Positions 1,089 to 63,251 of a DNA stretch of 64,000 nt are shown here, in pieces. The translations under genes and the position numbers were made by a program. Source of the stretch: Tubiluchus corallicola (Eukaryota > Animalia > Priapulida); contig JAQGDQ010000601.1 in assembly GCA_030141605.1 (NCBI GenBank), forward strand, positions 62,001-126,000. The letters are read 5' to 3'. Under the pieces are notes generated by a model. That model saw nothing but the letters and a program-made list of their open reading frames with translations. It was not told where the DNA came from and did no database searches. Each line of letters opens with the position of its first letter. The stretch's first letter is position 1.

Positions 1089-2248
1089 CTTTAAAGTATA
1101 GCCCACAAAAATTTCTGTACAAAGTTATTTTCCAGACCTGTTTGAAAGACTTACACAATTGGAAAAGTTCCTAATAATTCAAAATGTTTGCACCCCCTGG
1201 TAAAACGGCACTGCATCACCATCCCAGTTTGCACCACTGTTTCGCCAAAAAAGACATTGATCTGACAATTCAAAATAATCTAAACTTTTGCTTAGTTAGC
1301 ACACAGTGAGCTATCTCTGTTAATTTTTCAACGTTTACACAATGCCATCTAAACTTGTTTCAAATGATTTACCGTTGAAATGGCCTAACTGTTATTGCAG
1401 GAGTTTAAATTTACAAGTTGTATACGGTGTTATTGCTAATGCAAATCCTGCATGCAATAAGACAGTATGTAAGTGATGCAAAATTTCAAACCGAATTTTT
1501 AAACTTTATATATATGTGGATGATTTTAGGTGCTTTAATATACATAATTCACTATTAAGCTGCTACTAACCAGTACTTTATATATATATATATATATCAT
1601 TAAATCAGTTGGTGCCTGATCATAATTAGGAGGAACAAAAGTTCTTTTAGCACAATTAAATACATACTTCGTGCAGGTTTTAACACAACGAAGCTGAAAA
1701 CTTAGTTATTCAGTGTTGCTGCACAGTATTATGCAAACAAATTTACGTAGACAAATGTTTTACCCCATCAAATTTGTTTCTCTAATGTTTACTTATCAAC
1801 AAAACAGTTACTCAGCGTACTACTAATAAAATCCGCCTACAACTGCTGACAAAGGGCCTGACAAAAGATAAACAAAACCAACATAAATGGACAGGTTAGA
1901 TGAGCTAATGAATGGCATAGATGTCATGTGTGTCAACAAAAACCTTTTCAGCCTGGCCAATGAACAACATGCTATTCATCTAAAACAACCTTTACAAAAC
2001 TCTGCATGAACACGCTATTAAACTAACACCACGCAAATAACATAGCGAGTGTGCAATCACATTACAAAGTGTGTGCTCCGAAAAAGGAAGTCTGCATTCA
2101 ACAAATGGATATTTGTAATAATACTTGTTCACTCTGGGCTGAAATGAAAATATTAGGTTGGTTAATGCATGACTGCATCATCTGAAATTGTGCAAGACAG
2201 CGTTAATTAAATGTGAGGTACAGTAACTGTTTCCCGGCCTATTACAAG

Positions 2249-3673
2249 ATGTATCTGCCAGATAATGCAATGAACCACTACTTGATTCTAGTGACTGCTG
2301 CTCTTTTGACTTCTGTGGAGATAGAGGAATGTTCTGCGAGCAGCAACGTTCACACACGTAGACCAAAGTCAGAGATATTTTACCATTCCAGTGATTGTTA
2401 CAAAACAGGTGGATCAAAACTTGAAGACACCAATAAACAAATATGCTCGACTCGCAAGGGGGGTCAGTTTGTGCACTCGCTGAATGGAACCCACCTTCGA
2501 GTATCAATGTTTGAAGATGAACGGATAATGGAACCACTGATGTTATCATTACTGAATGACCTCAGCGTAAGTGCAAACTTCACTTACAGCTTCAATTACT
2601 TCTCACTGAAAAACTACAGTTATGAGGATGTTCTGAAACAAGGCATGACAGATCTGTTGATAGATCCACTGACGCACAGAGCTAAGCGAAGCGAATCTTT
2701 TACCTTCCTTCACGTCTTTTGGAGTTCATCCCAGATGGTGATATCCAAAAGGGAGGAAGACAGCATAGATGCATCGTTGCTGTCTCCATTTGCGAACACA
2801 GTTTGGATAGCAGTGGTAATATGCTGTGTAATCACGGGCGTAGTTATACACATGGAAGAAAAGTTATGCAAGCTTCACAAACAAGAACGTGTATCAAGTG
2901 CAGGATACTTTGCTAGGTACACCCTTGCATCACTTTTACAAAAAGACGGCACCTCTTTACCGACCAGAGTCTCATCCCGCATGTTGATGTCTGTGTGGTG
3001 GATGTTTGCTATAGTAATCACAGGAATGTACACGGGAACTTTAGTCGGAAGTTTGTTTCTCACCAAGCATAGTTATCCCATCACATCGGTCAACGATCTG
3101 ATAATGGGGCCGTATGTACCAGCTGTAGTGCAGCACTGGGGCTTTACAGACAGGCTACGCCACAGACCACCAGATTCTAACCTTGGGAAAATATGGAGGA
3201 ACATTGAATTGGATGAAAAGCTTCCAGTATATTCTGCAAATGATGGCCTTGAATTAACTTATACTGGCAAGTACGTTTTTACAGCTACAAGAAATTTCCT
3301 GAAGCTGCTACTGATGAATGATTTCCAGAAGTTTAATGCTTGCCGTTTCATGGTTATGCCCTTTCGAATGACCTCCGTCTCCGAAATTCATTCGAGTTGG
3401 GCGGTACCAAAAGAGAGTCCATATGCAGATGCACTAAACTATGGACTGGCAGCACTTTCACAAAGCGGCATTCTCAAGGCCACGATAGACAAGTTCCTTC
3501 AAAAAGATGGAGATCATTGTTTTTCAATGCAAGAACAATCGGTTCAGTCACGCCCTTTGCGCCTTCATCATCTACATCCAGTGTTTCTTGTTCTGATATT
3601 TGGAATAGTGTTTGCAGTTTGTGTAACATTGATTGAATGCATATGGTTTCACATGGTTCAAAACCCAGACTAA
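2249..3673 (+). CDS. Intronless variant ionotropic receptor (iGluR-family chemoreceptor, no amino-terminal domain)
   Basis: Single ORF; likely start is ATG 2249 or 2270, followed by the signal-peptide-like MNHYLILVTAALLTS. S1 motif DLLIDPLTHRAKRSESFTF; M1 LLSPFANTVWIAVVI; pore region ASLLQKDG..PTRVSSR; M3 VWWMFAIVITGMYTGTLVGSL; S2 and M4 present. Confidence 0.9.
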   Translation: MYLPDNAMNHYLILVTAALLTSVEIEECSASSNVHTRRPKSEIFYHSSDCYKTGGSKLEDTNKQICSTRKGGQFVHSLNGTHLRVSMFEDERIMEPLMLSLLNDLSVSANFTYSFNYFSLKNYSYEDVLKQGMTDLLIDPLTHRAKRSESFTFLHVFWSSSQMVISKREEDSIDASLLSPFANTVWIAVVICCVITGVVIHMEEKLCKLHKQERVSSAGYFARYTLASLLQKDGTSLPTRVSSRMLMSVWWMFAIVITGMYTGTLVGSLFLTKHSYPITSVNDLIMGPYVPAVVQHWGFTDRLRHRPPDSNLGKIWRNIELDEKLPVYSANDGLELTYTGKYVFTATRNFLKLLLMNDFQKFNACRFMVMPFRMTSVSEIHSSWAVPKESPYADALNYGLAALSQSGILKATIDKFLQKDGDHCFSMQEQSVQSRPLRLHHLHPVFLVLIFGIVFAVCVTLIECIWFHMVQNPD

Positions 3674-6082: not shown

Positions 6083-7417
6083 CAGTAAACTACGTATAAC
6101 ACGAATTCTTGTGTACCTCGAACAGATCTTGTGGAACGGCTATTTTCTTTTGTTTTTCTCTTTAACAAACATCGTGTAACTTGAATTATCACGAAACTCG
6201 AACCGAATCCCCGATAGAATTATTAAGAATCTGAGTGAAATTACAATGCTGATCTTGAGCAGCCTCCCAAATAAGAAATTCTGCTTGAAAGAGTGCATTA
6301 CATTACAATTTTAGCTCCTAGTTTCAGCAAAAATGCTAGGATTTCTGGTATTACAGGGCCGTAGTCGGCTTTTGAAAAGTGGTCCGGCCACAGATACGGA
6401 ACAGGTAGAAGAAGAATACAGCAGCAACATATAGAAGAGTATATTATAATTTATAATACAGAGTTATAATATAATAGAGCACTACACATACTCAATGATG
6501 ACATGATTGATTAAAACTTCCAAACACACATCTGCGCCGCTCATTTCTAGCAGTAAACTCGTTCGCAATTTCCTCAGGTCGAGAGCGTCTGTTCTATCCA
6601 TATGTACATGCAAAGTCATGAGATTGTTCAGTCTAGTTTGAGTCATTGTACTCCGCAAATAAGTTTTTACTCTACGCAGGGCTGAGAATGTCCTTTCACT
6701 TGTAGAATTTGTAGCCGGAATCACTAGTAGTATCCTGACAAGAATCACAATTTTGGAATAGATTGATCGCATCGCAGGTTTAAGTTCACGGAAATAACCG
6801 AATATATCCGACAGACTAACTGATTCACCTTGCTGATTTAGGCTGATTTGGAACCGGTGCTATATCCATGATAGATGAATTCATATTCTGTTTGTTGATT
6901 GGATATAATTTCTGTGATTGGATATAATAATGAAGTCTAAACCAAAATTGCTTCTTTTAGCTTCGAATAGAAACGATTTATGTGCTTTATTGTTGTCATT
7001 ATAAATAATGAAGGGGAGATGTCTAGGCACGTATGGCAGAAAAAGTAGTCCGGCCATGGCCGGACCGCCGACTACGGCCTTGTATTACCTTAGCAGAATG
7101 CTGCACATAACATGGCTTAATGAATGTGGTTCAATGTAGATCACAATATTATTATTGTCAAATTCTATTAACCATGCTACTCAGACGACAACAGAGATGC
7201 ACCAGTCATTTTATTTTTTATTATTCATAAAAAATGTTGTTTGATGCTTGATTAAAGGCTCAATTTGTCATTTTCACAGTGATGTGTTACTAGTGTATGA
7301 CTGACGTTGATGAGTGACTCATCTTGTTTACTTACGAACATTGTCTAACTTGTACTTTCGCATCACTCGAACAAATTTTCCGATCCTTCGAGTGTTCGAG
7401 TTATACATAGTTTACTG
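6083..7417. mobile_element. pogo/Tigger-like MITE interrupted by a nested hAT element
   Basis: TA|CAGTAAACTACGTATAAC ... GTTATACATAGTTTACTG|TA; internal sequence is the diverged reverse complement of 3755-4243. Confidence 0.8.
6354..7082 (-). mobile_element. Internally deleted hAT transposon carrying a hATC dimerisation-domain fragment
   Basis: TIRs CAGGGCCGTAGTCGGC / GCCGACTACGGCCTTG; ORF 6482-6772 LVIPATNSTSERTFSALRRVKTYLRSTMTQTRLNNLMTLHVH; flanked by TATTA on both sides. Confidence 0.85.
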
Positions 7418-32541: not shown

Positions 32542-35500
32542 TTAAAGCGCCTGTTGTGCAGTGCTGGTTTCTTCTAACATCTTTTCCATGTCTTTTAGCG
32601 GGTATCTGTTATCTGACGGCTGCAAGTTAAACTTCTCCACCAAAATGTTCATCACGTTTGGAGTGATGAAAGCTGGCATCTTGGGACCAAGCCGGATGTT
32701 CTTGATGCCCAAATGTAACAACGTGAGCAGGACAGCAACCGCCTTCTGCTCAAACCAGGACACAGCTAATGATAGAGGTAAAGAGTTCACGTCTGTCTTC
32801 ATTGCATCAGCAAGAGCAGAAGCGACAGCCACAGCTCCATAGGCGTCATTACACTGACCAAGGTCCAGCAGACGTGGTATACCTGTGTTTCCTAACGTAC
32901 CAAGTTCCTGTCGATTGAACCTAAATTAATTCAAAAATGTTCAGCAGGTAGGAAAAATACTAGTGCCGGTTCAATGTTCAAGAATATTCAAATACGTTAA
33001 TGGACTTCTGGAGAAAAGGCAGGTAAAGAAAAAATTAAAAATTCCAAGTAAACATCTATCAATTTCATTAAGTGGGAACTAATTAAAGTCTTAAGAAGTT
33101 ATGGGCTTACCTCGAAAACTACTTATATAATTCACATATTCAACTGATTTGTTTTTTCCTTTTTTATTACAGTAAGTTTTCCTGCCAATTCATTCATTTT
33201 AGTTTACTGCATTCTCACGTCATAGAATGTATTGGAGTAGACCTAGTGTATCATTAAAGTGGTCCTCTGTCCGTCATAATTTCTTAGTCTCTGCTGTCTT
33301 TGGAAAAATTTCTAATTTTCGTTGTTACTTGACAGTTTATATTGATCTGCACCTCGTCATTTCAGCTGACAGGTGTGTTGCTTCAGTGGCTTATCTTGGA
33401 TAGGCATTCTTGATAATGAACCATGCTCTAGTCACGCCACAAACATTTCTTCGAGCATGCTATTCTAGGCCCAGTTTCACAAACCGTCACTAACTTAACG
33501 ACATTGTTATTAATAGTTAAGTGAATGTAATGACGACAACATCATTAAGTTAGTGCCTTCTTTGTGAAATCGGCCCCAGGCCTGCAGTATTCTGTTTCTT
33601 GAAACTGTGATGTTTTTTACAGTCTACTTTTCTGTGTCCTGAGCTTATTAAATTATTGTTAATAAAGTAAAGTTTTGCTTTGTTTTTTGAATATAACTAT
33701 AACAAACTTCATAGTTTCTACCACGTTACAACTTGAAAATACGTACTGCCAAACTTGAAACAGTTGGAGTTTTAAAAGGAATTATTAAGGTATTAATATT
33801 CGGTCAGAAGCGATTATTGGTCATTTCAAATAACTAAACCTGTATTTTGCACATCCCATTGTCAAAACTATGGTGTCATCTGGCAAACCATCAACGAGCT
33901 TCGTGTAGTAACTTCTTCTATTTTCAGGACCATCACAACCCCCGACAACAAATATCCTCTTTAGTGTACCTTGCTGGACTGCTTCAATGACCTACAAAAA
34001 AATGCATTTATTCGCCGTTTTTTGTTGTTATGAATTGTCGCATATGCCTGTGAAAGCCCGTGATCGATCCCGATCAAACTCAACGATCGTCAGTTTTGTT
34101 AAAAAAATGATCAACCTTTAGGTCAGTTTAACAAAAACAGCAATTAACAAAAATAATTTCTTACACAAGGTAGTATTGCAGAGTAGTACTATATTTTTCA
34201 AAAATGTAGAGCTTATAGCTATATTAACAGGAAGTTACTTAAAATAGTGCATTTTTTTTAAAAATAAATAATTTGTTTAAAGATTTAATAAAATCATTAA
34301 AATTCGTTAAAAATATCAAGTTATTCGATTCATTCATGGTATAATTAGCAAATTTTTGATAAATTAAGTCACTGTGATGTAAAGTGTTAGAGAGAGGAAT
34401 TCGGAAACGCGCCCAGCTTATTCAGGTATACGGCCATTACTGTCCACTCGGTGTAGACACATCAAAAGAAGGAAGTTAGAAGGAAAAATGCGGGGCAAAG
34501 ATACAAAAACCTTCGCAGGACTTCCACAACACTCTTCTTGCTGACTTGATACAGGATTTGTATCACAGTTATAGCAGTAGTTGTTATGTAGTTATAATAA
34601 AACTGTTATACGATCACAGTGTTTAAGGCCCGTACCTGTTTATGTACGCTGCTAATTATCAATGCCTTATTGGACATAATTATACAAGCACCATAATTAC
34701 CATAATATACAAGCAGGTTTAGTGGATGAATAACATCAGTGAGGCAAGAGGGTAAAAAATTAATATTGTTTTACCCTAATATAGTGGACCCCTGCAAAAC
34801 GTCAACCTGGTTGCATCCGGCAAACTACATAATGAGATCTGAACGTGTAATAATACTTTCACCTGTTCTGCTTTTGAAGCAATGACATCGTGGCCAAATC
34901 CTACAGCCATAGTCTTTTCTTCCCCAGTTGGAATGCACTGCTCTTGTGTAAATCCAGGCGTGTTTCTTGCTGATTCCAATAACACCTCCATATCTTCCTT
35001 TTTGTGGAGGTTCAAATGAGTACAGCCTGTAAAATTAGGCAGACAGGTAGTTATCTATAAACCTATCAAATACATTCACATAATACACATCTTTAATAAA
35101 CAAGTACAAAAATTCTACTTCAATGATGTAAAGAATTGCTAGATGTCTAAGAACTTTGGCGCATGATTAATTTTTTAGTATTACCTGGCCATCCAACATC
35201 ACCAACAGTGAAAAGTCTGTCTTTATAGGATTTCATAGGTTCAACCAAACAATTGGTAGTCACAACAATTGGTCCTGGGAAGTGTGGGAATTCATATTTT
35301 TGGATGTACCATGCACCGCCGTAATTTCCAACCAAGTGCTAATTAAACAAAACAAGACATACGCTGTATAATTAATGTCATTAATACTACTAGCGCAAAA
35401 TTCCCACATGACTATGCTACTAACTACCAACAGCCAAAAGCCAAAGATCCATCTCACGACTATTAAAGCACATATATATAACCAAAAGCTTTATATTCAA

Positions 35501-38500
35501 TGTGCAGTCGTCAAAAGCTATTGATCTGTACTGTTAAAACAACATGCCATATTGCATATACAATTAATGTCACTTGTTATAACAATGAAAATGAAAAGCT
35601 CAAAACTGAAAATCATTAGGGCTACAGATTAGTATCAATGATTTTGACAACGTCTGGGAGCATAAACATACAGGTCTATATAGCACTGTCCGGTAACATT
35701 AAGCTGAAAATGTACACTACCAGATGCACGATAACAAAATGTTTGACCCACTACTAGACCCACATGCCACAAATGCTACGGATCTACACACTATGAATGC
35801 CCGATATACAAAAGCTGTGGCCCTAAACTACAAACGTGATGTCTTTCTAGCTACAGCCTACGTATTTGTACTACTAATGCACAGCAGTCAAAACTACAGA
35901 GCCGTACTACTATTGCTTGCTAATCAAAAGCTATATAACAAACGCTATAATATATAATTATATATTATAATATATAATTATATATTATAGTCAAAAGTTC
36001 AAGTGAACAGCTGAGTGGTGAAGATTTTTGCTCTGCAGCCGAAGTTATGCAACACTGAGAATGATCAGTGAATAGCGATTATCATTAAATTTTTGATTAT
36101 CATTAACATTATCAATATGCATTTTGAGTGTGTTAATTTAGTATACTGGTTCTGCATATTTATTTCATTGAAAGAGGATCTATTTATATATGAACATGCT
36201 AAGGCACCTCTGCTGGTTCAGTAACTCATCTAGAGGATAAGCCTTTTAAAGACTTTGTTATTGGATTCCAGCTTGCAGTGTCCCAAATTGTATGAAAAAC
36301 AAACATACTTCTATAGCCAAATGAAACAAAATGAGCCTTTCTGACATATCATTTCTGACCAAAACTTATCATCTTCCTGCAGTTGAATTTTTACATGTGC
36401 TGAAAGTCTAGCGGGCAGCTCAAACTAAAAAAACCTGTTTTAGTCATAAACAAACCTGATGCCACGCCTTGCATCTTTTATTTGTAGTATGTACTAGTGC
36501 TCAGTAATCGTTTTCTTAACTGAAGAAAACGTGCTTAAAGAATTTTTATTAATTCACCTTGTATTTGCGAACTTCTGGATACCCATGACCTGGTAGTAAT
36601 TCACCGTGCGTGTAAACATTAATACCTGTACCTTCGGTTGCTTTCAGGATTTCCAACAAGTCGCCTACATCGTGTCCAGAAACTAAAATAGCCTGAAATT
36701 TACATACACAACTTGAGCATGTCATTATTAGTTCTATAATATACATGCTACACTTACTTAAGCACCTTATATTGCTAGAAAAAGAATAGAAAAACGAAAG
36801 ACGAGAAACGTATGATGATGATGATGACGACCAAGATGATTATGATGATGAAGATGATGATCCAAAAGAAATAATCTTGCTAGACATCATCTAAAATCAT
36901 TGCAAAATACACTGCTGTCTGGTAGGTTAACCATTATACCTTTCCTGGCATTGGTGTAGTGGATACTTCGTGTGGCGTTGGAACACCAAATCTGTCACAA
37001 TGGCCTTTATCCAGCAATTCCATGCCTTTCAGGTTGGCTTTTCCCACGCCTAGCGCCAGCTCTAAGTTTTTAGGCAAATCCATCCTTTCCTCATCAGGGG
37101 CAGTTTCTAGAAAGTCGAGGGCCTGAAATTCAGAAAACCCTTATAGAGTCCAGGTTGGTCCAGAAGGTCGAGGGTCGGAGCGTCCAGATTCGGCGAGATT
37201 TGTCTAGAATGTGCAAAATCTTAGATAACCCCCAACTGAAGCCACATACTTATGTGTTATACAAATTGACGGAGGTATGGCCTACTGTATGTATTTAATA
37301 GGTATTGCGTCTCTTTTACCTCAAATGTGAACTCAGCTATTTCCCTGCAACCCTTTCCCAGGAGCACAGCATGGCGAGCGTATGAAGCCATACCTTTCAA
37401 ACCAAACACTACCATCTGACGAACACCATTGACGTCCTTGCCAAAGATCTTGTCCTCTTCTTTGTAATTCACCTTTCTTCCTAACAAGTCAAACACGATG
37501 GTATGACGTAATAATTTAACGAAATTTAGTTAATTCGTGTTTGATAATTGATTATAATCAATATTGTTAAGCACAAAAGCTTATTACGATCAAGCACAAC
37601 AGATTGGTTTTTCCATCTGATGTTTTTTGTCTGAATCTACAAAGGCCGGTATTTTATTTATTCCAGGTACTTTACCTTCAGCTTCAAGTGTTTCTATATC
37701 AAAAGCAGGAGGAATGTAGGTGGCAGGACCTTCTGTAAACACTTCTGGTTTTATCTCTTTTTCCTGTATAATAATTCAAACTTTCATGGAAAAAATTAAT
37801 AGTAACAAGACTAGCTGGTAAATAATCGGGAAACTTAAAAAAGCAACCTAATTATAGTAGGGGTCAAAATCACTTAAGCAAGTTACAGCTCGCTTCAATT
37901 GTTCATTAATTCCTTGGTTTGTTCGTTTATTCATTCGTTCGTTCGTTCACTCATTCATTTATTCATTCACTATACCATTCATTTTCTGTCATTATTTTGT
38001 TCTCTTCATAGTGATTGACCCATTTATAACCCGATCAATTAGAATTCAGTAAAAAAAATTGAAAATTTTTTTCTCAACGAAATAAACATGAATCTCTATG
38101 TTACACTGACGGCAGCATTTTCACTGTTGTTGCTTACATAGTCCATACCTTACACATTTTTTCATACAATTCCTTCATTCGATCTCGATATTCCAGTGTT
38201 TGCTTTATATAGATCGGAAAGCGGTCGTGGTCGAAGTTAACGTTAGTTAGTGTGCTACAAGTAAATAAAACTTTGTAAACACAATAGCATAACTTGTCAA
38301 AACACTGAGCCGAATACGCTGTCAATAGACTGTACTGTAGGCCAATACAGCGTGCAGACCTATCACTGTGAATCTCTAACCAATGTTTGAGTGCAAAAGT
38401 GTCTTTTAGATCTGTGTGCAACTTTCCGGGTGTTGCTTCTTGTGCACGTGAAATTATCAATGCCTGTAAATGCTTTTTTACCACTAACCTAAACAGAGAA

Positions 38501-40592
38501 GAGAACGTATGGTCATAGACTTCAGCATCAATCGCAGCTCCAAGTTTTGTGGCTCTATGTCCGTACATTGCAACGCCGCGGAGAATGTAGCACAGCAGAT
38601 CTTGCAGGTGCGCCACTTCTGCCGTCTTTCCACACACCCCGATTGTGACGCAACCAGTCCTATTTTTCGTCTGCTCGCATTGGAAACAGAACATGTCTAT
38701 AAAAAAAGCCGCATATTTGTAGGTTTTAATCGAACACGCATAACCTTCTCGCAATAGGAATATTATTATTTAATTCAAATAAACTTTAGTAAATAAGATT
38801 TTATTTTCTTTACTGATGTTGATGTTTACTTTGTTGATATTGAAAAAATACAAATTTGGCGCTTTTAAGTCCCGCATCGTCAGTAGACAGGAATATTTAG
38901 TTTACTGTCAATGCGTGCCCGAGCGCTTAAATTATCTTACATCTGTCTGGAAAAAAACATACACATTTACACGCCTGAAGATAGGTGGGCAAATATGCAC
39001 GCGTCCTGTCGCAACATAGTGATTGCAAATCTAAATAGGTTAAGGTAACAATTAATCATTAATGTAAGCAATGCCCTCCACTATTGCAAGTTAATTTGAT
39101 TTCTCCAAAGTGATTCTGTCTGAAAGGAAAGTGACATACTGAAAAAATTTGTTCCATTGTTAGGCTTAAATGGGAAGTTACTTATAGTACTACATACTTA
39201 CATAATTACACAGCGAATTAATGACTGTGATCAGTCCGGTCTTAAAGTCAGTTGGGTGGTCTACTTTTGCATGGTGAATGAGGCATCTCTATGAGATGTT
39301 AGAGAATTCAGTTTGGTAGACAAGGTGAAGGAGAGGAGGTGGCTTCTCCTATTGCAAAGTTGTAGGCCCAGGCTTTTTTGGTAGTAACGTGACCCGCATG
39401 GAATATGCCACGGAGGCTTACAATCCACAGTCAACATTGGCATGGTAGAACATTCGTTTTTGAAATAGAGCTCAAGCTGTTTGAGAAGAGGTCAGACTTT
39501 TTCGGAATAAAAAGAAGTACTGCACATACCATTAGACACATTGGGCATTGGAGGACAGCTATAAGCCACGTGATTACGTGCACCAAAAACAGAACAATAA
39601 ACTCTTTTGACTATCACTCAAACTAACTTAGAATGAACCTGGTACTGACACTTGGCCGGGCCTCAACTGTTAGTGGAATTTAATGGCCACCTTGCAATCT
39701 CGCAATACATCTACACACAACCATTTGGGCCTGGAACACCTCGGAAAACCTTGAATCGGAATTTCTGAAAATTATCATGTGTAGAATTTCCTGTGAATAA
39801 ACGACAGGCCTATACTGGAAATGTCTGTTCATTCAGTTGGATAGTTAATTTTGTTTCATTTTTCTGTTTACCATTTTTGATGGACAATACTGTAGTTCTT
39901 TTTTTACTTTTTCAAATAAAGACAGATTTTAATTTATTCATGTTAAATGAATGTGTGAATTTATGCAAATTTTTCATGAAAATACAAATAGTCTAAAAAA
40001 TGAAACAAATGATAAAAATCGTGTAGTCAATATTTAAATCGAATGATTTTTATACAGTACAGCCATACAGTTCTGAAAAAGTTCATAAAGCATTAAACCC
40101 GAATGAAATACTGTCACGTTTGAACGAAAGCGACAGTGCAGCTGAAGTTGCTGAACGAATGCAAGATTCATAATCTTAATAATTTTTAGACGTTCTCTGG
40201 CTTAGTTTTTTATTCATTGCACCAAAGTATCACCTGTGAAGACTTTAGTAAAATGTAGAAAGTTTAGCGTTGAAAATTAAAAAAACTAAGACAATTTCAC
40301 TTCTGAATTGAATGCAACGCATTAATCATTCCTTATCTTAAAAACCTTAAATTACTATTAACTTAAGCACTTGTTAGATTTTAATAATTTTATTTAAAAA
40401 TTATAATTTGATGCGAAACTCACCCTCTTCTGCAAGCACTTTTGCCTTGGTTGCCAGGCTCCTCTTTTGGTTTGCCGAAGATTTGACGATCGCGGACATC
40501 GGTCGAACAATCCGGACAAAATCTGTCTGATTACGGAACAGCTGATGTGTTGCCAAACGACGTAATGCCGTGCGTGCTAACGGAGCAGCCAT
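32542..40592 (-). CDS. hcp: Hybrid cluster protein (prismane / hydroxylamine reductase / NO reductase), class I-type, 11 exons, 632 aa, with predicted mitochondrial presequence
   Basis: Frame-consistent GT-AG exons: 40424-40592, 38489-38696, 38149-38254, 37676-37763, 37320-37480, 36940-37122, 36558-36692, 35185-35338, 34863-35026, 33840-33991, 32542-32920 (1899 nt). Motifs: [16 protein letters not shown] (CX2CX8CX5C), [76 protein letters not shown]. Confidence 0.96.
33467..33577. mobile_element. Short PIF/Harbinger-like MITE in HCP intron 10
   Basis: Imperfect TIRs GGCCCAGTTTCACAAA / TTTGTGAAATCGGCCC. Confidence 0.5.
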
Positions 40593-41139
40593 TGTTTCAG
40601 AAAACTTTCAAAACTGCGACTTACGTATGGAAGAGTTATTTATTCTCAGCTCAAGCCTTCACTGAGACTGTAAGCTGACTAAACAGAATCTAGCGCTGAT
40701 TATCAGCTTGCTTGGTGTTTGATTATTTACAGGAACTCGTCTTAGCTAATAGTGACGAAAGTTTCCCCAGGTCAAGGCCTTGCAGGGAACTATAATAACC
40801 CACGTGTGCTACGTACCAGCTTATGCCAACAAAAACTGTACTGCTTTCACAACATTTCACAACATGTGTCAGAAAGAATCAGAAAACATTTAAAATACAT
40901 GTACTTTAACGTTAAAAAACTGATCTGAGAAACGCTGATAATTTACTGCCGTTAGTTTAATAATAATTTTCGTTGATGGCAGCCATGCTGAAATATATAC
41001 TAGTAGGTAGTCTATTGTAGTGCTGATAGTTATAACATGGGGTGATAGTAAGCAGTATGAATTGAAAGAAGTACGGATATGTAAGTCTATAGTCGATTGT
41101 CGGTTTTGATATTTTTTACCGCACTGAAAGAGCGTTCAC

Positions 41140-42007: not shown

Positions 42008-43158
42008 CAGGGGCGTCGTGCACCAAAAAAAATTAGCTGGGCCCGACTGTATATAATACCGGAACTTAAGTGTTTAAAAACGTATAATTTTGAATTCCCA
42101 CACCAGTTTTTTGCGTGCAAGAAAAACGATTTATATAAATAAATCGTTATTCCCAACTGGCATTTAATTTAAAGCTATAGCTACAGAAATTTAATTAAAA
42201 TTAAAAATTAATTTAAAATTAAAATTTAATTAAGTATTTATTAGCTGTCAGGAATCCAAAGATGACGACTACCAAAACATATGTACCTTTAATTTAATAT
42301 TTTTAACAATTACTAAACTTTTTATTCCGAGGCAAAATGAAGATATTGAACAAACAACAAACGTTATTTTTAAATGATTCAGCAACACAGTCAAAGCCAA
42401 CAACATAACATGAATACGTTACAGGATGACTATAGGGGTATAGTAGAAAAGCAATGACAGGTATTACAGTTTACACCAAGATAAAACAAAGAGGTTAAAG
42501 CGTAAAAAGCGATATACAGCGACACATATGAATTAATGCACTAAAAATTTGTACTAACGACGCAGAACATCATTCCAGAAGAACTCAACCACAGACTTCT
42601 TTGCTTTCTCAGCCTCAACTGCAAGGATCATCAGGTCACTCAGTCGTGACTGACTCATTGTACTGCGGAGAGCATTCTTGACAAATTTAAGAGCAGAAAA
42701 GGATCTCTCACAAGAGCAAGACGTAACGGACAGAGTCAGAATCAACTGGTATGCGATGAAGATCATTGGGTAAAGTTTGTCCAGTCCAGAAGAAGTCATA
42801 TAACAGTATACTGAGTGAATACAGTTTGTGTTGACATGTTCAGGAACAGTCTGCAGCCACAGCACGAGTGAACAAGCGGTACTCCAACTCGAGGATTTCT
42901 TCATCGAGATCAGCCATGTAGAAGGTGCAAAGAATCTTGACTTTCTCCATCTTGACATTAGATTCAATCAATAATCATACCTATGTGTATGTATATAATC
43001 GCATATCATGCAACAGTGGGAGCTTTCACCGTTCCTCAAAATTTCACACCTTACTGGTCTCATTGCAAGCCGCCGAAACCCTTAAAATTTTTGACATTTT
43101 GTAAACAATCGGGGGGCCCAGGCCTCCCCCCCCGGGCCCCTATAGCACGACGCCACTG
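42008..43158 (-). mobile_element. Internally deleted hAT transposon with hATC fragment
   Basis: TIRs CAGGGGCGTCGTGC / GCACGACGCCACTG; perfect 8-bp TSD ACGACAAT (42000-42007, 43159-43166); ORF 42554-42967 LTLSVTSCSCERSFSALKFVKNALRSTMSQSRLSDLMILAVE. Confidence 0.92.
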
Positions 43159-46366: not shown

Positions 46367-49300
46367 TTATATTGCCTGAACACACGAATCATTGGTGCCT
46401 TCTTTCTTCAGTGTCTCTTTACAACCATGCGCTTCAGTCTCCTCTGAAACAATAGGAATATACTGTGAAACTTCAGCTAGAATTTTAAAACATTAATTAT
46501 TATCTAGTTGTCTGGAGGCAAGTCTTACGCGTAAACTAATAAGGCATAAATTTAGATGTTAAAATAGATAATGCATGTTTTTATTTATATACATGTAAAT
46601 GTATTATGCATACTTTTACATAACGTAAATATTGTAATTATCATGCAAACATTAGGCTATAATATTTTATGTCAATAATTACTAAAGTGGATTACTAAGT
46701 ATAAATAATGGACAAATATTATATCTATATGAAAGTTAACAAATACGCTAAAAGCTAAGAAATACTACATGTCATGCACTATTAAGAAAGACAGCTGCCA
46801 AAATTTATTGTAATATAATTTAAAATACAAAGCATTAGTTAAAAAAACAGTGCTTGGTACATCAATCAATCATACAATCTTCTAAATATTTTACTATACA
46901 ATCAAATATATAAATTTTACTACTAAATATATATTATAAATACAGTGAAGAAATAATAATGTTCACATATCAAATTACACAAATAAGTCTCTCACTTCAG
47001 GCGAACTGTATAGTGCAAAATGTGGCGAAGTATTGAACATATTGCACAGTGTACCGAAAATAAAAAATACTGAAAATAACCGCAAGAAATGAGGTCTGAC
47101 TCGAAACACACTAAAGGCCCAACTAAATTTATTAATAAAAGGGAATATGCCAACCGTTGAAGTAAGACACATAAATAAGCAAAGTACAAGCCTGACATAT
47201 AAAAACTGAATAAATAAGTAAACAAATAAATAATAATATCAATCAAATAGTTAACTGAAGCTGAAGGTTCAACTCAAAGATAAATAAATACATCCCAGCA
47301 ACTAAACAAACATATAAACAAATAAACACTTACAAATAAAAAACAACTAGCAATTAAAAATAAGCAGATATATAAGCAAACAAGCAGCAAGTAGACAGAA
47401 CAGAAAAGCACACATTTTTTGTCTAGTCTGGCTAAAAAAGGTTTTAAATTTTCTATGAAATGTGTTGGGCACGCAGAGTCACGTGACTTACTCTACTAGA
47501 TATACAGGTTTCTACATCTTTGACGTCAGTCTGGAATATAAGAACTACCCAGCAGCATTGCAACCCCTTTTAATATCGTTGACTGTATTCTAGTACGACT
47601 TTGTGTATATCGTATACTTAGGCTGCATTAATTGCTTTAGTTAATTGAATGAGTCATTAGTTAGTTACTCATTAAGCGAATTTATCTACTACAATAAAGC
47701 AAGTTGTGACTGTAGGTATATGAGCTTGCATCTAGTTAACTCTGGGAAGGGTCCCACCTCATACCTGTCCTAGATCTCCTTTACAAAAAAGCAAGTGATT
47801 GGTTATACGCTCAACTGAACAGGCTGTCTAGTCAATAAACCGTCGTATTAGAGGACAAGGTCATCCACTTTTACCTTTTCTAGAAATTGAAACCAGGTTC
47901 AACACAGTGTGTCGAACGTGTTAAGGCAGTGAAGTCGTCCAACATGGCTTCCGCCGGACATTTATTAACAGTCGAAGTCAAGACATAATTATTACGGCGA
48001 CAGAAAGGGTTGCGTGCTCGAGCCGTGAGGCGAAAACAACAATCAACTGGCTATTATTTGTTATCTGACGTACTGCTGTAAACGGAAAATCAGGAGATCT
48101 GGTGCAGAAACAATCAGGCAATGACCAGATGTTGTATCAACAGTAGTTTCACGAGCTCCGGAGAGTCAGGACTCCACTGCACTCCACTAGGATTGGAGAA
48201 ATAACCTCATACGACTCTGGTACCTCACAAGCATTGTGGAACTGACCACGTAAGATTCCACCCACTGCTCGAGCTTTGGAAGAGTAGCTGCTCAAGACTC
48301 CACAAAGTTCGCATAACGAGTTAGTCACGTTATTCCAGCTTTCAGAGTGATGGAGAACTCAAATATTGGAATCCGACAGCTTGCGTCTGCAGTCACTACA
48401 ACTGTTAAGTATACTTACCTTACATCCTCCTCCCTCGGGTTAACTATTCTTCTGGTTATCTTAGGGTTTGTTATGGTTTTGAATTAAAGTAAATTGCTTT
48501 CGGTTCTTATTACTTTATTAAAAAATTAATTTATCAGTAATATTAAAAACTGTGTCGTTTGCTTCTATTCGGAATACGTATCTGTGAACTATGCTGAAAT
48601 GGAAAGATTCACTGAACCCACGTGTCAGCACGTATCATAAATTAGGAGAAATAAAGTGTTTGTGGTGTCGTAACGAAAGCGTCCAATACTCGCAACTCGG
48701 GATGTTACCCATATAACCAATCTCATTTACTGTATACGAGAACGCCCCATACCACAAGTGGTGCCCCACATACAGGGCCTATTTCAAGGGGGGAAAGTGG
48801 GGATACTTCCCCGGGGTCTCACCCTCCAGGGGGCCTCACACCGAGGTAACATTATTTTTTTGCTTTATGCGAACATACTGTATAACTCCATATTTTCTCT
48901 TCGAAAATGCTTCTCCGGCGTTCTAGCAGTTAAAAAATTTTCTGGGCGCCAACCATGGTGGCATACGCCCCCCCCCCCCCGAGGAGGTCTCACACGCCCC
49001 ACTTCCCCGGACCTCGCTTAGGCTGAAATAGGCCCTGCCCACATATCACATAGTCCTCCTATTATATGTGCAACGCTCCCTTTTGGGCTTAATTGAATGG
49101 CGTAGGTGGGATGGGGAGACTATGCATTATTACACTCGTACAGCAAAATGTTACACCCGCTCTTCCTGATGTTAAGATCCGCCAGTCGAGATGTTGCTGA
49201 CTTAATCTGGCCTTTTTTGCAATGGAAATTATTTATTATAGTGACGCATATTCAATTACATCAATAAAAAACTCATCATAATACAAGAACACAAAATTTT

Positions 49301-52300: not shown

Positions 52301-55300
52301 CATCGCCTTAAAAAATTATATTACTTTATAGCAATTTTATGCTTATATTTTACTCGCGTTTGAAAAAATTTTGTTCCTTACTTTCATTTTAACTCTCCCG
52401 CAATACTGTTCCGACCGCGTCACTAGATGACGTCATATACGCACAAAGTAAATCAGGGGAAGAAAAGGAAATGTTAAACTATGTCCCAAAAGCTTTCCAT
52501 TATTTAGCATACCTGGCTTACCTGCTGGAAAGACTTGTGTAACTAGAAAAGAAAATTATTAACGATCTAAAATGTTTTCACCAATTTAATTTTAAATCTT
52601 TTGGCAAGATACAGTAAGTAAAAATTTTACTTAGTTAGTGACGTGTCTGCTATGAATGCTCAGATTATTTTTTCAAACTTTACTCACTGTTATCTAGACT
52701 TGTTTCAAATGACTTATTGTCAAAATGGCTGCATATAACGCACAGCGTTACTGCCGTTGCAAGCACTGCATGCAAAAGGCAGTACATAAGTGATATTAAA
52801 TTTCAATAAGAGTTTATGTCAATGGAGGGTTTTCTTGTGCTTTAATTTTTTTCGAAAACGATGCTATCACCGTCATCTTGAATTCGTAACGATACGGATT
52901 GAAAATCCGACCTAGTCAATATATGCGGAATTCATTCGAGTATATTTCTATAAAATGATCCATTGTGGATTCACGTAGCTCTTTTACGTTTTTTTGAAGA
53001 TGATGTTATTGTCGCCATCTATTCAAAATGGGAGATCAAAAGTCTGCTTCTGTCATTCCATACAAAATATATCACGTTCTAGTGTATTCCCTTAATAAAG
53101 TTTCATTACAATCCATTGTAGAATCAGATAGCCTTAGCTTTTTTCGTAAATGATGTTACTGAAGCTATCTTGAATTCAAAATGGCAAATAAAAAATGCGA
53201 CATGCAGAACTTGTTTTAATGTGTTCTTATAAAGTTTTAGAATCATCTGTTGCAACCTAGCTGTGCCTAGGATTTTTTGAAAATGATGTAATTGTCACCA
53301 TTCTAAATTCAAAGTGGCAGATTGAAAATCCGACTCCATCGATCAGTACGAAATTCGTTCCAGAATATTGGCTATGAAATCTTACTGTGATGGCCCATTG
53401 CCAATTGGCAGAGCCTTAGATCTAAGCTTTTTTGGAAACTGACGTTATTGCCGCCATCTTGAATTCAAAATGACGGTTCGACAATCCAGTCGATGCAGAA
53501 TTTGTTTTAGTATATTCGCTTGAAGTTTCATGATAACGCGTTCTATATTCGTGGACACCCTACCAAACAAGAAACATCCAGATAAGAAATCATTGGTCGA
53601 GCTACGACCTTAAAGTTATACAGTAAAACTATGGTTATGTGTTTGATTATAGAAATAATGAACTTGAACTACATCTACTTTGCATATTAAGAGAAAGATT
53701 GTTAGGATAATAGATAGACATTTTTTTATTAATAGATGTGTGGCCAAATGCTAAAATTTTATCATTGAAATCAGTAATTTGGTTAGAGGGTTAAACAGGT
53801 CAATGGTCATGCATGCTAGACTGATTCTAAATAATTAGATTTTTTAATTCAGTTTTTTAATTTTCAGCTTGAAGTTGCCTTGGGTAATTATCAAGATAAT
53901 TATTAATGATGGCACAAACAAACACACAAACAAATGAACTGTAGAAAATAAACTTTTCAAAAACAGGTAATGTGAAAAAATTGACAGAACCTGGATTTGA
54001 ATCAGCGACTTAATTATTTACCTTGGTAGGAATATCCTCTGCAACCACATTTATAGGGTCCATCACGACCGAAATCCATATTCCAAATCGATATACCATG
54101 ATTTCCGCTCTTCAGTCGATTTTGCTCAATCGTAATTAGATAGTCAGTGTATTGAGTTTCTTCTACAATAATGACTGCGCCCCATAGGTACCAAATGCAA
54201 GAATAGTTTTTGTTGTAATGGTTAACGAATTCTTCAGTTACCACGCATTGCATTATAGCTCCTTCTCCAATGGCTACCACTACGTCTTCTGGCTCCTTGT
54301 AGAAAACTAACGGCTTTTCCAAAAATTTTATTTCAATTTCGAAACCCCTATTTGTTACGAGGGAGTTAGACGTGAAATGAAGAAACATCGACTGACCAGA
54401 AGACTCATAACCTGGAGGAAGTGTGTCGCCACAAAGTTTAGCTATCCTGGACGATTCATCAACATCGCTCCCATCGTAGATGTAAAGCGCATCGAAAACA
54501 CAAAGGTCGTCGTACTCGACTGCAAACTTTTTGAATGATATATATACAATCTGAAAATGACGCAGCGGTTAAGATACGTTCTAAATGACTATGAAGCAAA
54601 TAATTGCTTTACTAAACTTAGAAGTGAATATGGCAAAGCAACATTGCATATAGTGGTCATTACTGTATAATACTATAGATAGAGGTTTAAGATTCAAAGG
54701 GACACAAAGGCAGTTAAAAACGGCCCTACTGAGAGAAGTTTTACCTTAGTTTATTTTAATAACCAGCATATTTCATATACCTTTTATGCATTTGTGCCTT
54801 ATTGTGTTTAGAATATGTGCGCGTGGGAGTAGTGTGTTTTAATCTAATATATAATATCTTATTACCCATGTATTGGTAAAGTTTAATGTATATTTTGTAC
54901 TGTGATTTATATTTTAACACTTTTTAAACTATAAAATTTCTGAAAATGTATACGATTTTAGCCTTATCTACTATTTAAACTTTATAGATGTGCATAATTT
55001 TACTAGGGATGTATCGCAGTATGTTGTGTTTATTCTATAATTCTTAACTTTACATTTTAAGAACAGCATTTTTTATTTTTAAAATTCAATATGCTTAATT
55101 TATTATTGGATGTATGTGGATGTATTATTTTTGTGTTTTATTTATTTTACAATACTTTTCCTAAATTCTTATTTTTAGTACTAGTATTTCTTGTTTTTTA
55201 GTAATTAACATGCTAATTTTACTTTGGATGTCTTGCAATGTGTTGTGTTTATTTTATAATGGTTTTCTTAATTTCTTGTTTTTAGTATTTACTAACCACA

Positions 55301-58300
55301 CTTGGGCCATGATGGAAATAACGTTAAGTCTTTACATATCCAAGCAAAAACCAAATTTGTTTCTCTTCTACTTACCTGGGTAAATGACAAACGACCAAGG
55401 TTTTTTACATTTTTACCTGTTTTGACATGGACATTGTTAACATTATTAATCTAATGATCATTACTATGTCATAAACATTATTGCACTGATTGCATTTATT
55501 GTGATGTATTTTGTTTACCACAGCAGTTTTTTTGTATTGTTGTGTAAACGAATGACTACAAGTTACTATTAGATGGAGCAATATGATTGAAGTAGCAAGA
55601 TGTGTTTGAGATATGACATCATGAGCTGACAAGGATTTCTCGTTTCTGCTGCCTGATTTAGAATGATTCACGATGTCATGGGCTCCAGTATGAATAACAT
55701 CACTGCTGACATATGAAGGTAGCTTCTGTAGTCGTCTCCCCATGGCTGTCTGTCATCTGTAAATTGATTTGGTCGTCCTGTATGAGTCTACGTGTTACAT
55801 TTTCTGCCCTAATTCTACAAGGTGCCTCTGTACTCACTATAACCTACAGCAGGGTGTCTTACCATGTGACGAAGTCCAAATTTGGACCTGTTTTTATTTC
55901 TTCTTCTTCAAGGTCTCATTCCATCTATTGCAGACATTGAGGTATCAACATTTATTAGAGCATTCCACCCACTTCTATCTGCAACTAACAGCGTAAGTTC
56001 TTCTACTCCTAAAGATAGATTTGGTTAAAGTTGTTGAACATCTTTATTTATCTTAGCTATCCAAGTTGTTACTGGTTTGCCAGGTGGTTTTTTGCAAAGT
56101 TTAACTTGATAAATTGATTTGAGCTGGAAAGATGGTTTCATCATCTCATTTTGCAAAAACAACGGTAGCCTACTTTCCAATTATCTTCCTATCCAATCAC
56201 GCTAAAGTTGTCACACATATCATTACGGACAGGATCAAGCGTCTCCTCTTTTCAGCAAACTGACTTTACTCCTTAGCATTGCATCACCAAGTGCATCCTC
56301 ACCACCTCAGAACCCTGGACTAGCAGAAGAGGAAGGGAGGAGAGAGGTAGTTTGCAAAGTTTTCTTGGTAGGTTCTTTTACACTGACTGTAACTCTCTGG
56401 CTGCTATAATGGTTTGGAGTTCTTACAAAGTTCATCTCCAGTCTCAAAGTACATTACCAGCAGAGTTCAGAAAAAGGCTGCTCTTGGATCTCTTTGCCAA
56501 ACCTTCGGGCATTTATCAAGGCACTCGCCATTTTTCAACTCGTTCAACATTCCTACTGAAGTCCTGGTGGAGACCTAATGTCCACGCCTCCCCACCAGCT
56601 GTTACCATCATTTCGTGATTTCTGTTTTGCAAACGATGTTACACTCTTTACAAAACTGATTGCAGGCTTCCAGGTGCATTTGAAATGTGCCCATTGGAAG
56701 TCTCACCATTGGGCCTTACTATCCAAGCGAAGATTAAATTCCCGAGACTTCACGTCCAGTTCCTTCTACCTCTGACACAGGAGAAGGCGTACAAGTTGTG
56801 AGTCATTTTATTTACCTTAGTTCAAAGATCACTTCTAATCCAAGTCCAAGATAGAAAAACGTACTTAGCTTGTGAGGATTACCTTTAGTCACTCGAAGGT
56901 TTGCTGCAGCTATAATATCAGATGACCAAAAAAAACCATCTACTGCACAGCACCATGATGTCAGTTTTGCTTCATGGCGGTGAGACATGTACCCCTTTGA
57001 CGACTGATTGACGACACTCACTGACGACCTCACTGATACCTCACTGACGACCTCGGGCTCCTATTGAGGCCTTCCATCAAAGTCACTTGCATGCCACACT
57101 TTGCCTGCTAAATTTACTTTTTCACCAAGAAGAATCGGGGGAGGGGGCACATAACCTCGACAGTAACTAGAAGGCTACAGCAGAATGAAGCCTCTTGCTA
57201 CGTTGTCTTTTTGCATCATTACATAGCATCATAATAGAGTCTTCGGTTTTTATCACAATGTGTTTTCACTTATTGCCGTACCAAGTTTGCAACACGGTCA
57301 GAACATCTGCAAAAGCCATTAACTAAAGTCCTAAAGCAATAGGTCGTTTTCTGATCAATGGCTCACGCAGTGGGGACATTTTAACTTCCTGTTTAACACC
57401 ATTCTGTTTTTTTTTTACTAATGGCAGGCATCATACCTTTTTTGTATGAGATTTATTTAATAAAAATGGCATGCTAAAGTTAATAAATAATTTAAGGGGC
57501 AAAAATCCTATGTCGAGCAATAGAGTTTGTTTATGTCGCCCAATTTGTAAAAATGTATGCTTTGAGTCGAGAAACGTGAAATGGGGCGAAGGAAATAGCC
57601 AGGGCACCAGGCGCTGGGTGTGCTTACCGCATCAACACACCTTAATCCGGCCCTGTAAAAGCTGTGTGATATGGGTTTACTATGACGTCAGTAACTGTTT
57701 TTTATTTTGTACACCAAAAAAACTCCGCAAACAAAAGCTTACCATTGACTGAGGAGCAATGATGAGCCATCTACAATCTGCGTAATTTGGGTAATATCCT
57801 GGATATCCTGGAGAATATATTGAACTTTCTGTTGTTACTTCCAGAACTTCGCCGTTGCACTCATGTGGTGGTACAGTTGGTTTCGTAGTCGGTGCCACTG
57901 TATCAGTAGTCGTATCATTGGCAGTAGTTGTATAACTGTCAACTGTCAATAAACAATAATTATGCTCATTACTGTTCATTTTTACGTCCATCATTACAAT
58001 GTACCTATTCGTTTTGACAATTTAGGCTGTCATATGTGCTTCTTGCTTACATCGATGACATTCTTTCGAAGTCCTGTTGTAATAGATGTTATCAAAGGCC
58101 AGCTAAATGTTGTTGCAAAATATTATGCAATACTTTTATTATTTTTTTTACTTCTTAATTACTTTTGGTTAGGAAACGTTGATATTTCCTATCTACATGG
58201 ATCACTGTACTACCCTTTCAGTTAACTGGTTAAGCTCAAAATATATACAATTGAGAAAGGTAGCACCAACATCAGCAGCATCAGCACCACCAGCAGCAGT

Positions 58301-62253: not shown

Positions 62254-62474
62254 ATCACGTGGCAGCTAAATCCCAATACTTAAAAGCAATACTGCATGAG
62301 AAGCAGCTTGAAAACTCATGATTGCGGATGCCTCTTTCCAACAACCAAGTTCTGACTCTGCAGTGTTCAGCATTATAATTCAGAGAAACAAGACTTTTGT
62401 GAAGTGAACGTTTGCTCTTCCAATTGCAGCAAAAAAAGACATTTCAACTCATTCATTAAAGCGGGATTACGTAC

Positions 62475-63251
62475 ATGATCATGCATCATTGCTATTCAGC
62501 TAACACAGACGCGCACACGGAAGAAAATCCGGTTGAAAGACCCATACATAGACCACTATTCTCTGCACATCCGAATTGCGAGTATGGACTACCACTTCCA
62601 AATTCCAGAAATCGTTCATCAAATCGGTTTTCTCATTTGCCAGCCATTGACCATGCAAATAAAGGAGCAGTTCGAGGCAAATTTGGCCGAAGACTGCGAC
62701 GAAGATCTGGTAGAGGATGGCATGGGCAAAGTCTCTCTAGGGGCATCGGGCCTGCAGGAATGGGAACACACCATTCTTTCTGGAAGGGTAGGCCTGAATC
62801 AGGACAGCGTCGCATGAAACTCCACACTATGCAAGCCTTTCAACAGTGCACTGGATCACTTAAATGGAACTATACCGATCCAACCGAGAAATTAACAGAA
62901 AAAGCGCATAAGACAGAGAGACCTTTTGTCGCAAAATGTTTCACTTTCACAATTCCCAAAGAGAACTTAATTGTGACAGTCTCGGAACAAGTTCTCCACG
63001 TTTCTGGGCAGTATGTTAGTAAAGAAACTGGTAATTTTATTGAATTGGAACAGAAGTACCAGTTGCCAAATGGCGTGGATGCTACCAAACTCAAGACCCA
63101 CATGAGGCACGGCATGCTCATTATAAAAGAGGAAAATTCTCACACAGAAATACCGGTAGTTGTTGCTAGTGATGATGATGATCATGTTAGTGATGATGGC
63201 GAGGATAACACTAGAGAGTTTATGATTACAGGTGGGCAAGAGAAAGAGTAA
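62475..63251 (+). CDS. Small heat-shock protein-like (HSP20/alpha-crystallin domain) with Arg/Gly-rich N-terminus and acidic tail
   Basis: FTFTIPKENLIVTVSEQVLHVSGQY..FIELEQKYQLPNGVDATKLKTHMRHGMLII fits the ACD beta-strand pattern, followed by an IXI/V-like EIPV motif. Start uncertain (possible acceptor TTCAG near 62499). Confidence 0.78.
   Translation: MIMHHCYSANTDAHTEENPVERPIHRPLFSAHPNCEYGLPLPNSRNRSSNRFSHLPAIDHANKGAVRGKFGRRLRRRSGRGWHGQSLSRGIGPAGMGTHHSFWKGRPESGQRRMKLHTMQAFQQCTGSLKWNYTDPTEKLTEKAHKTERPFVAKCFTFTIPKENLIVTVSEQVLHVSGQYVSKETGNFIELEQKYQLPNGVDATKLKTHMRHGMLIIKEENSHTEIPVVVASDDDDHVSDDGEDNTREFMITGGQEKE

Follow-up and report, generated by a model that had tools for sequence, protein, structure and literature searches.

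The window, by which is meant the whole 64,000-nucleotide stretch of DNA that was analysed, carries on its minus strand a gene for hybrid cluster protein (HCP), an iron-sulfur enzyme described mostly from microbes. The HCP gene has 11 exons that give one intact frame of 632 amino acids, and 10 of its 10 introns are GT-AG. An in-frame stop lies six codons upstream of Met1; the start codon, at 40592, is flanked by A at -3 and G at +4. Intron 1 divides the Asp57 codon as G/AC, and Met58 opens the sequence MFCFQCEQT. The features are listed here in the order of the gene; a slash within a motif marks the putative cut.

40424..40592, minus strand: exon 1, 169 nt (40592-40424), GTGAGT directly after; Met1-Glu56 and the first base of Asp57; predicted mitochondrial presequence and short linker
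40548..40562, minus strand: RRLAT, residues 11-15; within the amphipathic part, an unlikely cut site
40449..40463, minus strand: R44-S45-L46/A47-T48, R-3 type motif, likely processing site; matching position in orthologues
38697..40423, minus strand: intron 1, 1,727 nt, phase 1, GT-AG, 3' end TTATAG; precisely absent from the X2 contig
38489..38696, minus strand: exon 2; Met58 at 38694-38692; C60-x2-C63-x8-C72-x5-C78; covered in X2
38149..38254, minus strand: exon 3; intron 2 absent from the X2 contig
37676..37763, minus strand: exon 4; GT-AG and frame
37320..37480, minus strand: exon 5; GT-AG and frame
36940..37122, minus strand: exon 6; GT-AG and frame
36558..36692, minus strand: exon 7; hybrid-cluster site H312, E336
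35185..35338, minus strand: exon 8; C380
34863..35026, minus strand: exon 9; GT-AG and frame
33840..33991, minus strand: exon 10; C475 (persulfide-type position), C503
32542..32920, minus strand: exon 11; C530, E564, K566, stop codon

Two public runs, X1 and X2, were compared with window positions 38100-41050. X1 resembles genomic DNA from the same organism or from one very close to it. X2 gave a 424-nt spliced contig from a close relative, with 30 differing letters across three aligned contig pieces. The preliminary description of this locus had joined exon 1 to position 38696, and the X2 contig shows exactly that joint in the relative: 40424 is joined to 38696, exactly 1,727 nt are omitted, and intron 2 is likewise spliced out. 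The contig reaches 40424-40529 of exon 1, stopping before Met1. RNA support thus covers introns 1 and 2, and introns 3-10 were placed by GT-AG ends, frame and homology. Exon 2 of the relative differs from that of the window at 16 positions in 205 nt; of the differences listed for X2, nine of ten in exon 2 leave the amino acid unchanged, compared with three of five changed codons in exon 1. No similar copy of exon 1 was found elsewhere within the window, nor was a second HCP found there. A contig of X1 over 38950-39430, in intron 1, has about twice the depth and 20 differences, and is probably a repeat copy.

Several other features were seen in the window. Downstream of HCP lies a Gemin5-like multi-exon gene (about 9300-30254, minus strand), its WD40 and TPR_GEMI5 matches falling below curated cut-offs. 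An intronless, ionotropic-receptor-like frame of 488 aa (2207-3673, plus strand) matches the ligand-gated ion channel family PF00060. CUB-domain exons lie at 54014-58021 (minus strand), an HSP20-like frame at 62460-63251 (plus strand), and two hAT transposase fragments at 42554-42967 and 6482-6859 (both minus strand). A 56-aa frame at 47883-48050 (minus strand) scored 21.4 bits against the Pfam IL8/chemokine cut-off of 21.3 (E 3e-4), likely by chance (104 frames).

The core of the window protein is that of an intact HCP of class I type, in which none of the 12 cluster-site residues is missing. PF03063 matched exon 2 (E 1.5e-12) and exon 11 (E 2.7e-37), and also matched the Owenia orthologue (E 2.5e-143), to which the window core is 62% identical across 575 aa. 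The hybrid-cluster site consists of H312, E336, C380, C475, C503, C530, E564 and K566, a set of His, Glu, four Cys and Glu plus Lys, and its motifs agree with those of Desulfovibrio vulgaris HCP. These eight residues and the four cubane cysteines are invariant in all 26 proteins of the animal clade. The persulfide Cys and the second Glu of the site are named in PMC10210160, from which the class definitions were also taken. The cubane motif, C60-x2-C63-x8-C72-x5-C78, aligns without gaps to 1e2u, 8cnr and 1gn9, while E. coli 7de4 has 57 residues over the stretch where the window motif takes 53, i.e., the four-residue class II insertion is absent here. A class II Hcp-Hcr system was rejected, the cubane insertion being absent and no hcr-like reductase gene having been detected in the window. 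We call the protein class I-type, not class III, because its N-terminal domain is full and that of class III is shortened: the Owenia orthologue covers D. vulgaris residues 1-550 in one stretch, versus only about 418 columns for class III.

As a stand-in for the window protein, an AF2 model was made of the Owenia orthologue. Residues 1-66 of the model have pLDDT below 50, and its core matches D. vulgaris HCP with a TM score of 0.92 by target. Against the HCPs of D. vulgaris, D. desulfuricans and Methanothermococcus (1e2u, 1gn9 and 8cnr), TM scores by target are 0.90-0.93 at 39-42% identity. Cubane spacing, a full N-terminal domain, the site residues and the fold are common to these proteins and animal HCP; compared with them, the window protein has in addition a 57-aa leader, and its gene is a nuclear animal gene with 10 introns.

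The leader is N-terminal, basic, acid-poor, amphipathic and outside the folded domain. Residues 1-54 have a net charge of +10 and, as described before, one acidic residue, namely D24, with E55, E56 and D57 coming after; every 54-mer of the mature protein has a charge of +4 or less and at least two acidic residues. Over 11-residue stretches of the first 30 residues, the hydrophobic moment peaks at 0.75, a value that no mature 30-mer attains. Two other destinations were rejected. A secretory signal peptide lacks its hydrophobic core here, the best 11-residue Kyte-Doolittle mean being 1.26 in a segment containing two Arg, and the peroxisomal PTS2 pattern R-[LVIQ]-x5-[HQ]-[LAF] is unmatched in the leader.

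An R-2 or R-3 processing motif near the mature start is a mark of a cleavable matrix presequence, and the R-x-L/A-T type of pattern reflects a cut by MPP followed by Icp55-type trimming. Both motifs named in the preliminary description are present, RRLAT at residues 11-15 and RSLAT at 44-48, and only the second keeps its proposed role. RSL/AT lies 14 residues ahead of Met58; motifs in orthologues sit 13-22 residues before the core, so that of the two window motifs only RSLAT corresponds. R44 is preserved in the X2 relative through a synonymous change. RRLAT lies within the amphipathic part and is not likely to be a cleavage site. The presequence itself is of an ordinary kind. Charge, scarcity of acidic residues, hydrophobic moment, and the absence of a PTS2 or hydrophobic core are strong sequence evidence for the mitochondrial-type presequence proposed earlier. 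The leader is likely to send HCP to mitochondria, and mitochondrial targeting of the protein is, on these predicted properties, very probable.

To place the gene among animals, the N-terminal half of the Owenia protein was used as query, and 120 clusters were listed. The animal orthologue group comprises at least 25 clusters at 252 bits or more, above the remaining matches of the 120 listed. Named members are Owenia, Lingula, Helobdella, Mytilus, Mya, Mercenaria, Dreissena, Mactra, Sinanodonta and Solemya, and Lamellibrachia and Ridgeia are added as cluster members. As judged from these sequences, HCP carriers span annelids, one brachiopod and bivalves, that is, three animal phyla; among the named matches in the two listings, each drawn from 7,998 candidates, there is no oyster, scallop, gastropod, cephalopod or non-lophotrochozoan animal. 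The 'hydroxylamine reductase-like' genes of Mytilus, Mya, Mercenaria, Dreissena, Lingula, Owenia, Helobdella and Lamellibrachia, whose names are automatic, are leader-bearing orthologues. A metagenome scan with a bivalve-type exon-2 fragment gave 80 loci, which share 47-69% identity with the query; none comes close to being identical with it. Several HCP records come from Mytilus species (the cluster of P0013), some on contigs of equal length, which suggests tandem copies.

Leader statistics were computed for the window protein and the 24 orthologues with sequence before the core; P0057, which has none, was left out, and three truncated representatives were swapped for full-length cluster members. 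Leader length is 55-72 aa in 24 of the 25 and 37 aa in the remaining one. The acidic fraction is 0.030 in leaders versus 0.118 in the core, and the Arg fraction 0.123 versus 0.040. The pattern R-x-[FLY]-[SAGT] occurs within the last 22 leader residues in 11 of 25 rows versus 2.3 expected (0 of 100,000 draws), a p-value that is inflated because the rows are related and because the pattern was loosened after the window leader had been seen; as defined, the motif is missing from the other 14 leaders.

Intron positions were compared by setting nine exon-like fragments from genomic contigs against full-length cluster partners. The fragments break at this gene's intron sites 2 (four fragments), 4 (one), 7 (two) and 9 (three). 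For intron 1, the comparison with other animals is based on a single protein fragment, P0227, which breaks three residues ahead of the core Met. One bivalve-type fragment stops at a site where the window gene has no intron. From the leaders and shared intron sites of the orthologues we infer that the gene already existed, with its leader and some of its introns, before annelids, brachiopods and molluscs diverged. In the Helobdella model P0008, 11 residues are inserted precisely where intron 2 lies, probably through a mis-called splice.

We give a probability of roughly 0.68 to the following reading as the whole explanation: the leader-bearing, class I-type HCP of animals would enter the mitochondrial matrix and there reduce NO to N2O at low oxygen. 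As its sequence suggests, HCP would be imported through TOM/TIM23 into the matrix, the leader probably being cut near R44-S45-L46/A47 by MPP and then trimmed by an Icp55-type activity. The matrix ISC machinery would load the [4Fe-4S] and hybrid clusters into HCP, and for the electron donor our guess is a matrix ferredoxin or flavin reductase. By analogy, HCP would then reduce NO to N2O when oxygen is low, and removal of NO would relieve complex IV and Fe-S enzymes in hypoxia and reoxygenation. Bacterial HCP is a high-affinity NO reductase (PMC10210160), and in hypoxic Mytilus gills NO goes up and complex IV activity is lower at 1 kPa (PMC6411825). Given targeting, NO reduction is by analogy the probable main job of the protein.

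A NO-protective role is plausible by analogy with the bacterial and Acanthamoeba proteins. Microscopy places the HCP of Acanthamoeba castellanii in mitochondria; its level increases under hypoxia and anoxia, and NO elimination has been hypothesised for it (PMC13632651). Like animal HCP it is eukaryotic and mitochondrial, a likeness of description in which the location is shown there and predicted here; its host is a protist with hydrogenase and PFOR, whereas the present host is an animal. Chlamydomonas HCP1-4 are leader-bearing too, and HCP2 is said to be mitochondrial; they differ in their link to nitrate metabolism and in that the destination given for three of the four is the plastid (PMC8003979). 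The class II Hcp-Hcr system of E. coli has the family and the proposed NO-to-N2O chemistry in common with animal HCP.

Some of this is known already: mitochondrial HCP has been found in the protist Acanthamoeba, the animal genes are annotated in databases, and a clam paper names the family. The last, on the Ruditapes (Manila clam) genome, lists HCP as a species-specific antioxidant family in a passage that makes no mention of targeting or origin (PMC5499747). Passages on eukaryotic HCP in PMC1484493 and PMC10210160 deal with microbial eukaryotes only. HCP is counted among the anaerobe-enriched proteins of the reconstructed LECA mitochondrion, in passages that do not include animal HCP (PMC13777428), and the term HCP is absent from the main text of PMC13342648. 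No paper on animal mitochondrial HCP was found in a search lying mostly outside subscription journals, a statement that excludes the figures of PMC13777428 (a 203-species HCP heat map including Capitella) and the tables of PMC13342648, which may show animal HCP.

A mitochondrial HCP might instead have another job in anaerobic mitochondria, as an electron sink for ferredoxin, a scavenger of hydroxylamine or peroxide, or an S-nitrosylase. The function of HCP is disputed even in bacteria, where hydroxylamine reductase, peroxidase and S-nitrosylase have also been proposed, and all of the activities just listed have been reported or proposed for HCPs; the kinetics with hydroxylamine and peroxide, however, have been judged incompatible with a physiological role (PMC10210160). 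Chlamydomonas HCP4 has been proposed as a competitor for ferredoxin electrons (PMC8003979), and the animal carriers include inhabitants of sediments, seeps and vents (Solemya, Lamellibrachia and Ridgeia), but an electron sink still requires a terminal substrate. We regard such another job as unlikely.

The leader also bears on the origin of the animal gene. The preliminary description proposed that a targeting exon had been grafted onto a prokaryote-like gene, by implication in this lineage. The leader type proved to be common to lophotrochozoan orthologues and protist HCPs, the HCPs of the ichthyosporean Amoebidium and the choanoflagellate Salpingoeca among them, and in the tree the protein sits among eukaryotic HCPs. 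Any graft is therefore older, and probably much older, than the divergence of annelids, brachiopods and molluscs, and the notion of a recent graft in this lineage was given up.

Trees were built from 300 near-full-length sequences, reduced to 236 by dereplication. In the FastTree of all 236, a 25-leaf animal clade lies within an 86-leaf group rich in leader-bearing eukaryotic sequences. A C20 tree was then computed for 62 hand-picked rows, in which the label 'animal' on rows without a name, and 'prok' on eight others without one, was assigned by us. It recovered the animal clade at 100/99, with the window protein paired with Owenia (95/89) and with Amoebidium plus P0182 as the sister of the animals (90/88). 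A branch of 28 rows (99/95) holds the animals, Amoebidium, Salpingoeca and chlorophytes, the chlorophyte HCPs thus falling in one branch with those of animals. In a 36-row LG+G4 tree, Clydonella and the reductase fusions adjoin the animals (86/72), so the sister differs between trees. AU tests on the 36-row set rejected no constraint. Joining the animals to Amoebidium and P0182 gave p 0.34 at a cost of 10 log-likelihood units, joining them to the four holozoan-group rows gave p-AU 0.068 (19 units worse), and joining them to eight named prokaryotes gave p-AU 0.086 (32 units worse).

A recent prokaryote-to-animal transfer was rejected: the clade spans three phyla, has 10 introns with several shared sites, and falls among prokaryotes in none of the trees. 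An older gift, in which an early lophotrochozoan received hcp straight from a prokaryote and added the targeting exon afterwards, we rate as rather improbable. All named animal matches listed are lophotrochozoan, intron 1 lies at the boundary of leader and core, resemblance to the core is little lower in named prokaryotes (48-51%) than in protists (50-51%), and the p-AU of 0.086 leaves a prokaryotic grouping standing. In no tree, however, do the animals fall among prokaryotes, and that grouping costs 32 log-likelihood units versus 10 for animals plus Amoebidium. Also against a direct gift are the leader-bearing HCPs of Amoebidium and Salpingoeca, the Atlas's best cluster, which is 79% eukaryotic, and the place of HCP in the anaerobe-enriched set of the reconstructed LECA mitochondrion (PMC13777428). 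Descent of animal HCP from that of a unicellular eukaryote is favoured by these sequence comparisons, and transfer between eukaryotes is also possible. Most likely, the HCP gene was inherited from a unicellular eukaryote and lost in many other animals.

Combining this descent with NO reduction, we put forward as a tentative suggestion, on balance doubtful, that annelid, brachiopod and bivalve mitochondria retain an ancestral anaerobe-type NO reductase from unicellular eukaryotes and make N2O with it. If so, animals would have their own enzymatic NO sink in hypoxia. Invertebrate N2O has been attributed to microbes (PMC5640653); part of the N2O of bivalves and worms, now credited to microbes of gut and shell, would then come from the animal's own cells, which offers a host-side hypothesis for invertebrate N2O emission. 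The interest of the locus lies in the presence of a predicted mitochondrial class I HCP across animal phyla. Given an intact, leader-bearing HCP in three phyla, the enzymes of animal mitochondria would come to include an Fe-S-O enzyme of the anaerobe type, a candidate off-switch for the NO that accumulates in hypoxic mussel tissue. It would make the long-disputed function of HCP testable in mussels, clams and leeches, and it would supply an animal example for a matter under debate, namely whether the anaerobic enzymes of mitochondria are ancestral or were acquired by transfer.

The retained internal Met had been proposed as a possible start for a cytosolic isoform. Met58 is indeed present in 26 of 26 animal-clade proteins, and a start there would yield a complete core. 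The equivalent Met is kept in 104 of 105 proteins with long leaders and in 77 of 80 with only 1-12 residues ahead of it; it is residue 6 in PDB 8cnr and residue 4 in 1gn9, and five extra N-terminal residues are seen in the 8cnr crystal (PMC10210160). Since this Met is internal in prokaryotic HCPs too, its retention is explained without an alternative start and loses its value as a sign of an isoform. Dual localisation, with a shorter cytosolic isoform starting at Met58 (or Met32), is in our judgement quite improbable: structure alone accounts for retention of the Met, the context of Met1 is strong, Met32 is in frame ahead of Met58, and in the one contig available (X2) no transcript start within intron 1 was seen.

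That the gene is an artefact, whether it stems from contaminating bacteria, is a pseudogene or owes its exon 1 to chance, is scarcely credible, even though a Riftia plume HCP cDNA (GenBank EF648468) was in 2007 ascribed to possible bacterial contamination (PMC2175520): the X2 splice joint and the intact 11-exon frame with its ten spliceosomal introns rule it out, the spliced contig of the relative has a synonymous bias, the neighbours of HCP in the window are animal-type, and the orthologues sit on chromosome-scale animal contigs. The Riftia cDNA may itself be a host gene, given the leader-bearing HCPs of Lamellibrachia and Ridgeia (P0233, P0235).

As to the electron donor of the proposed NO reductase, no flavoreductase family was found among the 98 frames of at least 55 aa upstream of HCP, and tblastn of seven reductase domains gave no match in the window. 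A weak search for a lophotrochozoan orthologue of the HCP-fused diflavin reductase named none among the 29 matches listed from 7,996 candidates; the animals in that list were represented by Latimeria CPR and by a diflavin reductase of a spider, at 23-27%. Fusions of flavodoxin and FAD domains to HCP, about 1,200 aa long, make up seven of 150 representatives (P0305, P0306, P0308, P0312, P0314, P0329 and P0338), and the reductase part of P0305 is nearest to Aphanomyces proteins (41-43%). Other fusions are flavodoxin-HCP (P0301) and cytochrome b5-HCP (P0335). The domains joined in these fusions suggest which proteins naturally supply electrons to class I HCP in eukaryotes.
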